From IMG/VR virus record IMGVR_UViG_3300001213_000018: a stretch of DNA of 17,821 bases; one strand, 5' to 3'. How positions within the stretch are numbered: position 1 is the first letter of the stretch; each line of letters opens with the position of its first letter. Under the pieces are notes generated by a model, which saw only the letters and a list, made by a program, of their open reading frames with translations, was not told the DNA's origin and did no database searches. This DNA is from a virus. Position numbers and translations under genes: made by a program. This document shows positions 2,774 through 3,268 of the stretch, piece by piece.

Positions 2774-3041
2774 ACTCACGCTGCTCCTTCTGCTGTGCTT
2801 TCTTCAAGAGGTCGAACATCCAGTCGGGCATCACCTTGGGGTCAAGGTGCCACATGCCGTATTCCCTGTGGGGCTGTGGTTCCCAATCACCGTCTAAAAA
2901 TCCACGCTTCCTTCGACCGGCGTTAATCTTCGCCACCAAAGAAGGGGACATAACCAGTTCTGCACGGATGCTCCCATCGGGCCTCCGTAGGACATACAAA
3001 ATTTCTTTCTCGGGTTCAGTTTCCAGTTTCCGTCTGCTCAT
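2739..3041 (-). CDS. Hypothetical protein, 100 aa (MSRRKLETEPEKEILYVLRRPDG...), apparently translated from a leaderless transcript.
   Basis: ATG at 3039-3041 lies 6 nt downstream of the -10 hexamer of promoter copy P5. ATGA overlap with the upstream gene's stop. The ORF-track start at 3056 is a GTG inside the -10 element and is rejected. Confidence 0.5.
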   Translation of the reverse strand: MSRRKLETEPEKEILYVLRRPDGSIRAELVMSPSLVAKINAGRRKRGFLDGDWEPQPHREYGMWHLDPKVMPDWMFDLLKKAQQKEQREYVANQEASRVD

Positions 3042-3268
3042 GCCCCTAGTATACACGGCTGGATTCGTTTTTGGTCAGTATTTTTTGCAGGAATATTGTA
3101 GGCAGCAACAATGGTACGGGTGAGAGAGGTTGGAGCCGGGGTGGTCTGCCCACAGCCAGTGCATTCTAATAGCTCGTAAGCGGCTCCCATGACGAACCGG
3201 GTAGAGCTACGACACACGGGGCAAGCGGGGGTGGTCTGTTCCAATTTCTTAATCAGCCTGACGTTCAT
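3038..3268 (-). CDS. Small zinc-ribbon protein, about 76 aa (CPVC ... CTGC).
   Basis: ATG at 3266-3268 preceded by SD GGAGGA. An alternative ATG at 3308-3310 has no SD. The CxxC-x17-CxxC pattern suggests a zinc ribbon. Its 3' end reads through promoter P5 and overlaps the next gene by ATGA. Confidence 0.45.
   Translation of the reverse strand: MNVRLIKKLEQTTPACPVCRSSTRFVMGAAYELLECTGCGQTTPAPTSLTRTIVAAYNIPAKNTDQKRIQPCILGA
3048..3090 (-). promoter_or_regulatory. Conserved promoter copy P5: -10 TATACT at 3048-3053, -35 TGACCA at 3072-3077, 18-nt spacer, A/T tract at 3079-3090.
   Basis: Minus-strand reading: GCAAAAAATACTGACCAAAAACGAATCCAGCCGTGTATACTAGGGGCATG. It lies inside the 3' coding end of the upstream zinc-ribbon gene. 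The -35 hexamer is the closest to consensus of the five copies. Confidence 0.55.

Follow-up and report, generated by a model that had tools for sequence, protein, structure and literature searches.

A repeated promoter cassette in an uncultivated huge phage with predicted transcription starts at the start codon or at a Shine-Dalgarno sequence

The window, by which we mean the whole stretch of 17,821 nucleotides of viral DNA analysed here (17.8 kb, 53% G+C), carries phage genes that lie nearly all on the minus strand. Many of its open reading frames (ORFs) have no family match. The genes that bear on this study are listed below in order of coordinate.

2739-3041, minus strand: gene behind promoter copy P5, function unassigned, 100 aa, predicted leaderless
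3338-5794: gene for an 818-aa protein with major-vault-protein domains
7836-8804, minus strand: Ku homologue, 322 aa (Pfam Ku, 6.5e-31), with its ATG at 8802-8804 after TATACT and 6 nt, predicted leaderless
8961-10238, minus strand: rIIB
10231-12732, minus strand: rIIA
14164-14673, minus strand: gene behind promoter copy P4, function unassigned, 169 aa, predicted leaderless

The Ku protein of the window is also encoded on a 413,469-bp JGI contig (sample 3300075153) and on a 10.8-kb contig assembled from run SRR404151, whose source is surface sediment of the Twitchell wetland (PMC7329831, reference 30). The window is thus a piece of an uncultivated huge phage, and the readable part of this 413-kb phage is the 17.8 kb described here. 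A near-identity search against GenBank phages gave no match to the window, and tblastn with rIIA found distant relatives only, at 33% identity or less. The tRNA and Rfam searches of the window were both empty, and a peptide-pattern search of IMG/VR for Ku gave no relative. The Ku homologues discussed below came only through promoter scans (L194 and L131) and a metagenome scan (L209). GGAG/AGGA-type Shine-Dalgarno (SD) sequences precede most other genes of the window, which indicates that the host ribosome uses SDs and that a missing SD is specific to promoter-proximal genes.

The hexamer TATACT occurs six times in the window against 1.9 expected occurrences. Five of the six lie on the minus strand in a common context of about 55 nt, and all five copies are found upstream of minus-strand genes. 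These copies, and the one terminator that lies among them, are as follows.

281..336, minus strand: P1, with TATACT at 281-286 and box TGTCCAAAA at 302-310; score 36.2
3048..3103, minus strand: P5, with TATACT at 3048-3053, G at -13, box TGACCAAAA at 3069-3077 and an A-tract upstream; score 30.1
8811..8866, minus strand: P2 (Ku), with TATACT at 8811-8816, TAGCCAAAA at 8832-8840 and the A-tracts GAAAAAATT..CAAAAA upstream; score 41.1
8882..8906, minus strand: intrinsic terminator between rIIB and P2, with a 9-bp stem, 8 G-C pairs and a T-run
12753..12808, minus strand: P3 (rIIA-rIIB operon), with TATACT at 12753-12758 and TAGCCAAAA at 12774-12782; score 36.8
14680..14735, minus strand: P4, with TATACT at 14680-14685 and TAGCCAAAA at 14701-14709; score 41.8

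The layout of the cassette can be written as GAAAAAATT..CAAAAA.. (C/G)TAGCCAAAA - 11 variable nt - C..G - TATACT. The hexamer is invariant in all five copies and matches TATAAT at five of six positions, including the A at position 2 and the T at position 6. The G at -13 is also invariant, and it differs from the classical TGn extended -10. The TAGCCAAAA box has A-tracts upstream of it, lies 15 nt from TATACT and spans -36 to -28. The really conserved unit is (C)TAGCCAAAA(C), a non-canonical -35 that is conserved far beyond the usual -35 element and is unlike TTGACA. A generic sigma-70 scan independently returned TAGCCA-18-TATACT at P2, P3 and P4; in these copies TAGCCA matches TTGACA at four of six positions with a spacing of 18 bp, and the match is weaker at P1 and P5. 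Conservation is bipartite; the 11-nt spacer and the 6-nt discriminator both vary.

The copies are captured by a weight matrix of 36 nt that ends at the last T of TATACT and is therefore blind to anything downstream. Exactly these five sites in the window are found by the matrix, with scores of 30-42, and P1 still scored 36.2 when its copy was left out of matrix building. In 20 shuffles of the window, scanned on both strands, the maxima were below 10 except for one at 18.7. The position of the TAGCCAAAA box alone is similar to that of T4 middle (MotA-dependent) promoters, in which the MotA box has the consensus (a/t)(a/t)(a/t)TGCTT(t/c)A and is centred at -30, but the TAGCCAAAA box contains no TGCTT. 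A contiguous block of about 20 bp running through the start site, as in promoters of single-subunit (T7-like) polymerases, is not present either. The TAG of the box serves as the stop codon of gene 14707-15138 upstream of P4 and of gene 12780-13256 at P3. A purpose-built stop for upstream genes was considered for this TAG and rejected; only 8 of 40 TAGs in the promoter family described below close a long frame, so that its role looks incidental.

Downstream of the hexamer, an ATG follows at one fixed distance in three of the five copies, all on the minus strand.

TATACT 3053..3048, spacer AGGGGC 3047..3042, ATG 3041..3039, minus strand: start at P5
TATACT 8816..8811, spacer ACTAGT, ATG 8804..8802, minus strand: start at P2 (Ku)
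TATACT 14685..14680, spacer GTATGT, ATG 14673..14671, minus strand: start at P4

A preliminary description of this DNA had reported TATACT, 6 nt and an ATG at 3041, 8804 and 14673, and its coordinates and spacing are exact. An ATG at one fixed offset in three of five copies has a chance probability of 3.7e-5. The first T of TATACT lies 12 nt before the A of the ATG in each case, and the spacers AGGGGC, ACTAGT and GTATGT, being only 6 nt long, hold no SD between promoter and ATG, as had also been pointed out. In the frames of P2 and P4 the box supplies the first stop upstream of the ATG (its TAG, 12 codons away, at 8840 for Ku), with no start codon between. At P5 a GTG directly adjoining the hexamer, without an SD, is the sole upstream candidate. 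Automated gene calling on the 413-kb contig independently chose the same three ATGs. Other start codons, among them ones further downstream with SD sites, which the preliminary description had envisaged as an outcome that would overturn its reading, are excluded by conserved N-termini, in-frame stops and these gene calls. Three downstream codons were considered in turn. Met34 of Ku has GAGAAGG 2 nt upstream, but no Met is found there in L194 and L131, and the 33 codons ahead of it have evolved in the manner of coding sequence. The ATG at Ku codon 4 is CTG in L209. In the P4 gene the next in-frame ATG is codon 17, and a start there would remove conserved residues, since conservation with L054 begins at residue 5. 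On this comparative evidence, the ATGs at P5, P2 and P4 are the true translation starts.

The remaining two copies, P1 and P3, have a different arrangement between hexamer and start codon.

TATACT 286..281, then 17 nt including GGGAGAGAA, ATG 263..261, minus strand: P1
TATACT 12758..12753, then 20 nt including AGGAGAGAA, ATG 12732..12730, minus strand: P3 (rIIA)
261..274, minus strand: predicted 11-nt leader of P1, GGGAGAGAATA, then ATG; the gene runs off the left end of the window
12730..12746, minus strand: predicted 14-nt leader of P3, AGGAGAGAAAAACC, then the rIIA ATG; the SD opens at the base predicted to be transcribed first

Here the hexamer is followed by 6 nt, by GGGAGAGAA or AGGAGAGAA, by 2 or 5 nt and then by the ATG (263 and 12732), so that the seventh base after TATACT opens (G/A)GGAGAGAA. 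Leaders of 17-20 nt had been proposed for these two genes. The SDs are indeed present, but 17-20 nt is the distance from hexamer to ATG, and the leaders would measure 11 and 14 nt if transcription starts at the seventh base. The orthologue of P1 in L160 has the same SD-led layout. The automated rIIA start at 12750 should be corrected to 12732. The 5'-terminal 45 nt of the five predicted mRNAs show weak folding, no different from that of shuffled controls, which is neutral as evidence.

The same promoter is found well beyond the window. Two pattern scans of IMG/VR, which specified only bases within or upstream of the hexamer, found many viral contigs. Among them, one sample supplied contigs of 463 kb and 332 kb, and a further contig, 98 kb long, has several proteins in common with the window. 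The family is defined as 49 distinct matrix matches with a score of at least 29 in the window and the fetched contigs. An ATG lies exactly at offset 6 in 25 of the 49 (binomial P about 3e-32, with many of the members being orthologues and hence not independent events), and in 22 of the 44 outside the window. The orthologues are still informative because the 6-nt spacing is kept while the sequence of the spacer changes. An ORF of 40 codons or more begins at 20 of the 25 offset-6 ATGs, whereas the chance expectation, as estimated from stop-codon frequency, is about 15%. About 14 of the 49 promoters have GGAG, GGGAG or AGGAG from offset 6 and an ATG 16-23 nt past the hexamer, and three have an ATG at offset 7, 8 or 9. 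Of the 49 promoters, 45 have a pyrimidine at position 6 after the hexamer and 47 have a purine at position 7, in the ATG and GGAG classes alike.

Comparison of orthologous loci adds to this picture. The Ku orthologue in L209 (74% identical) is preceded by a hairpin with a T-run, A-tracts, CTAGCCAAAC, TATACT, the spacer AAGGAT and the ATG; the order of elements is the same as in the window, and an equivalent of the upstream terminator is kept. Differences between the two genes in the first 33 codons are mostly synonymous, together with one in-frame 3-nt indel. The more distant Ku of L194 (33% identical) has TATACT, TTAGGT and ATG. The Ku homologue of L131 has TATACT, agggatGGAGGcgat and ATG, that is, a GGAGG leader, which suggests that the same gene can be leaderless or SD-led and that the two forms interconvert. 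The P5 gene has a homologue in L160 (64% identical, aligned from residue 3) with TATACT, GTAAAC and ATG. Two further gene families, common to L107, L110 and L144, have kept the spacing and changed the sequence of the spacer. Homologues of the P4 gene in L054, L207 and L208 are 61% identical and align from residue 5; this orthologue has no promoter and overlaps its upstream gene.

Taken as a whole, the five repeats quite likely represent one strong sigma-70-type promoter, from which transcription would start at the A of the AUG at P5, P2 and P4. The parts of the putative promoter would be phased, UP-element-like A-tracts, the TAGCCAAAA box at the -35 position, a spacer of 18 bp counted from TAGCCA, the G at -13 and TATACT. 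The near-consensus -10, the variable spacer, the box at the -35 position and the A-tracts at the UP position point to a holoenzyme of the sigma-70 family. If the hexamer occupies -12 to -7, +1 falls on the seventh base downstream, which matches the conserved pyrimidine-purine step, and RNA polymerase would start at this base, a purine after a pyrimidine in nearly all family members. Since the seventh base is the A of the ATG at P5, P2 and P4, their transcripts would have no 5' untranslated region. The earlier proposal of a transcript start at or next to the A of the AUG agrees with published leaderless geometry. In predicted bacterial leaderless genes the first T of TANNNT lies about 12 nt before the start codon (PMC3160421), and in Mycobacterium tuberculosis the Pribnow box is 6-8 nt from gene starts (PMC6028130). 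Translation of leaderless mRNA proceeds by ribosome binding to the 5'-terminal AUG (PMC9031893), and the P5, P2 and P4 mRNAs would take this route. The P1 and P3 mRNAs would begin with the first G/A of (G/A)GGAGAGAA, with the SD at the 5' end of a leader of 11-14 nt. The Ku and P4 genes have neither an SD nor a coupling partner on read-through RNA, and their translation should therefore need transcripts from their own promoters. The identity of the polymerase and sigma, the exact start site and the mode of translation are what we infer from these features. Early expression would be a guess by analogy with T4, based on the rIIA, rIIB and Ku cargo only. The leaderless reading overall is a prediction that the sequences support well.

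Longer polycistronic transcripts offer a different account, in which the genes would be translated by termination-reinitiation or 70S scanning and the motif would act as a minor or internal booster. ORF 3038-3268 contains P5 within its 3' end and closes with a TGA that overlaps the P5 ATG (ATGA), so that coupling without leaderless mRNA could contribute there; in L160 the upstream stop lies 2 nt before the ATG of the P5-gene homologue. The terminator scan of the window found no terminator upstream of P4 and P5, and their genes may also ride longer read-through transcripts. The promoterless P4 orthologue of L054, overlapping its upstream gene, points in the same direction. At Ku, however, the strong terminator at 8882-8906, 78 nt upstream, and an intergenic gap of 156 nt make the gene the first of its transcription unit and make coupling impossible. 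The gene upstream of P4 stops 33 nt short of the ATG, with no SD in the gap, and coupling cannot account for a spacing of exactly 6 nt that recurs in 25 of 49 promoters. As a general explanation it appears unlikely.

The start site could also lie elsewhere if the cassette were read by a phage sigma factor, by a MotA-like activator bound to TAGCCAAAA or by a phage RNA polymerase, with a shifted start giving a short leader or an intragenic 5' end. The strict conservation of TAGCCAAAA, with a match of only four of six positions to TTGACA, suggests a specific recogniser, either a phage sigma or an activator, and such a recogniser could in principle shift the start site. The box is over-conserved relative to the usual -35, and the invariant G at -13 is not a classical TGn extended -10. 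Huge phages frequently encode transcription factors of their own, and 17.8 of 413 kb are readable here. Against this, the bipartite layout, the variable 11-nt spacer and the near-consensus TATACT typify a sigma-70 holoenzyme and are atypical of single-subunit or phiKZ/AR9-type polymerases. The seventh base is also singled out by the pyrimidine-purine step at positions 6 and 7, which the ATG and GGAG classes share, and an intragenic start would leave conserved N-termini untranslatable. A phage sigma or activator alone would not move the start site. We give the shifted start a low probability. The idea that the offset-6 ATG is a promoter initiating sequence or a chance occurrence, and not a start codon, is effectively refuted. 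It could draw on two family members, L073 (ATGGACTAG) and L046 at 5160, in which the offset-6 ATG opens no long ORF. The GGAG that replaces ATG at this place in about 14 promoters, the frequency with which the ATGs open long ORFs, the conservation of the encoded N-termini and the chance probability of 3e-32 all speak for start codons.

Start codons joined to a -10 element in this manner are best known from bacteria. In Deinococcus deserti 47% of mRNAs were mapped as starting exactly at the start codon (PMC4007540). In group C of GeneMarkS-2, 25-50% of operons are predicted to be leaderless, and the other first genes and the internal genes have ribosome-binding sites (PMC6028130). A mix of leaderless and SD-led genes, which had at first been regarded as unusual for this DNA, is thus normal for such bacteria, with an architecture known from Mycobacterium and Deinococcus. 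The TA-led genes of Actinobacteria and Deinococcus-Thermus resemble those of the window in the TANNNT spacing, in the lack of an SD and in the combination of leaderless first genes with SD-led internal genes (PMC3160421, PMC6028130, PMC4007540, PMC4633059). They differ in having a bare TANNNT and a weak -35, whereas the cassette described here is long and comprises A-tracts, TAGCCAAAA and TATACT. They also belong to high-G+C cells, whereas the starts predicted here are those of a 413-kb wetland-sediment phage with 53% G+C.

Among phages, lambda offers the cI transcript from PRM, a host-type promoter; this transcript begins with the A of its AUG, and its translation depends on recognition of the 5'-terminal AUG (PMC9031893; Brock et al. 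2008, as cited in PMC5312081), as is predicted here. Lambda represents one regulated case, whereas about half of one promoter family across many related contigs is involved here, as predicted from sequence. The Thermus phages phiYS40 and P23-45 have leaderless middle and late transcripts. Phage transcripts are often leaderless according to PMC5312081. The phages phiKZ and AR9 also have very large genomes with repeated conserved promoter motifs. In contrast to the present case, phiKZ has no leaderless transcript and most of its 5' UTRs are 31-40 nt long (PMC8244752), and the UTRs of AR9 range from 26 to 491 nt (PMC5312081). Both phages use phage multisubunit polymerases, and their promoter motifs are unrelated to the cassette. 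The early promoters of T4 and UP-element promoters of the rrnB P1 type are strong sigma-70 promoters with A/T-rich tracts at about -40 to -60. T4 early promoters drive rIIA and rIIB, have a -35 of GTTTAC/TTGACA and give SD-led early transcripts. The cassette is similar to them in its A/T tracts and its rIIA/rIIB cargo and differs in having TAGCCAAAA at -35; the likeness to UP elements is putative. Literature searches returned nothing specific on the promoter motif or on leaderless genes, whether of jumbo phages or of Acidobacteria. The phenomenon itself is already known. What is new is the setting among huge uncultivated phages of one clade, the length and conservation of the cassette, and the rule by which the predicted +1 falls on either the A of an AUG or the first SD base.

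The leaderless starts had also been taken as a hint at the host lineage, with Actinobacteria and Deinococcus-Thermus named as groups where such starts are frequent. The hint is too narrow, as predicted leaderless fractions reach 13% in Acidobacteria, 16% in delta-proteobacteria and 27% in Aquificae (PMC3160421, Table 2). When an 18-base form of the motif was used to look for a host among 185,579 species genomes, three matches came up (L204, L205 and L206), of which only L205 is a true family member. The match in Phycisphaeraceae (L206) is followed by an ORF of only 15 codons, and the match in Caldilineaceae (L204) has a low score; both are taken as chance. The contig that carries L205 (CAZYCV010000001.1, 182 kb) belongs to a Terracidiphilus (Acidobacteriota) MAG. 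The hexamer there is separated by 5 nt from a GTG that opens a conserved ORF of 108 aa; genes for a phosphatase and a resolvase come next, and an IMG/VR viral contig is homologous to this region. The contig may be bacterial or may be mis-binned phage DNA, and an Acidobacteriota host is a weak lead and no assignment.

If confirmed, these promoters would provide the first conserved, family-wide use of leaderless mRNA in giant phages; in the two giant phages with mapped transcriptomes named above, phiKZ and AR9, leaderless mRNAs occur in neither. The 36-nt matrix can serve as a sequence marker by which promoters and true gene starts are recognised in this uncultivated clade of phages. The dependence of the Ku and P4 genes on transcripts from their own promoters lends itself to a simple reporter design. 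The host must handle initiation both at SDs and at a 5'-terminal AUG. A bolder generalization, which we regard as rather improbable, would extend the scheme to a whole huge-phage clade with contigs of up to 463 kb from wetland and other metagenomes. Such a clade would use one cassette with the start hard-wired to the A of the AUG or to the first base of the SD, about half of its promoter-driven operons would need leaderless translation, and the TAGCCAAAA box and the G at -13 would be the site of a new sigma factor or activator. If this were true, the phages could favour initiation at a 5'-terminal AUG, or remodel the host ribosome towards it, during takeover of the cell. Alternatively, the host lineage, possibly Acidobacteriota, could rely on leaderless initiation more than has been appreciated.

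The promoter copies P1-P5, all on the minus strand, share an invariant G directly before the -10 hexamer TATACT, which creates the 6-bp palindrome GTATAC at each of them. This G, at -13, is not the same element as the TGn of the classical extended -10. The window contains six GTATAC sites, of which five belong to these promoters; the ranges below cover the G together with TATACT.

281-287, minus-strand promoter copy, GTATAC
3048-3054, minus-strand promoter copy, GTATAC
8811-8817, minus-strand promoter copy, GTATAC
12753-12759, minus-strand promoter copy, GTATAC
14680-14686, minus-strand promoter copy, GTATAC

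P3, P4 and P5 also overlap the genes that precede them. The gene upstream of P3 ends on the TAG of the TAGCCAAAA box (12780-12782), as does the gene upstream of P4 (14707-14709), and the promoter A-tracts code for the lysine- and asparagine-rich C-termini of both. In all promoters with ATG 6 nt after TATACT, the box TAG lies in frame, 36 nt upstream of the ATG. Since only 8 of the 40 TAGs across the promoter family close a long frame, their use as stop codons by upstream genes is probably incidental. A small ORF with a CxxC...CxxC pattern (3038-3268) contains P5 at its 3' end. The C-terminal residues of this ORF, ...RPCIL, are the translation of CCGTGTATACT and are kept in its orthologue on the related contig L160 (5285-5503). 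This stretch seems to be under dual constraint, as coding sequence and as promoter.

At P3, the automated gene call of the 413-kb contig that encodes the same Ku starts rIIA at GTG 12750. This codon is only 2 nt past the -10 hexamer, and we rejected it in favor of ATG 12732, which is the better start and is preceded by AGGAGAGAA (region 12730-12750, including both start codons). Further within rIIA, a perfect 39-nt tandem duplication (10789-10868, minus strand; 2.1 copies, 100% identity) produces a repeated 13-aa segment, GRTFVEFVNEVRD. The first base of an independent Logan contig, L121, falls within this repeat, which may therefore have arisen by recent duplication or in the assembly, as an artefact.

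Other genes of the window are listed here.

3338-5794, 818-aa phage protein with vault domains
7836-8804, Ku homologue
14707-15138, minus strand, gene divergent from the next
15172-16215, plus strand, 347-aa gene without a family match

In Pfam, the 818-aa protein gives hits to the shoulder domain of the major vault protein (1.2e-22) and to the vault repeat domain (7.9e-11). Its C-terminal part is long and coiled, and L160 carries a copy that is 71% identical. The phage Ku homologues (window, L209, L194 and L131) have in common an N-terminal extension of ~33 aa ahead of the Ku core and an insertion with a C..C pair past the first strands. The 347-aa gene is the only plus-strand one among the gene calls, and no family promoter was found in the 33-nt gap separating it from its divergent neighbor.

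The promoter family is also present on L205 (4677-5039), a Terracidiphilus MAG contig (CAZYCV010000001.1), and on L140. Here, the promoter is followed at offset 5 by a GTG that starts a conserved ORF of 104-108 aa; a dual-specificity phosphatase and a serine resolvase lie downstream, and DndB-like and RmuC genes are found in the vicinity. The arrangement may represent a mobile cassette, or the contig may come from a phage and have been mis-binned.
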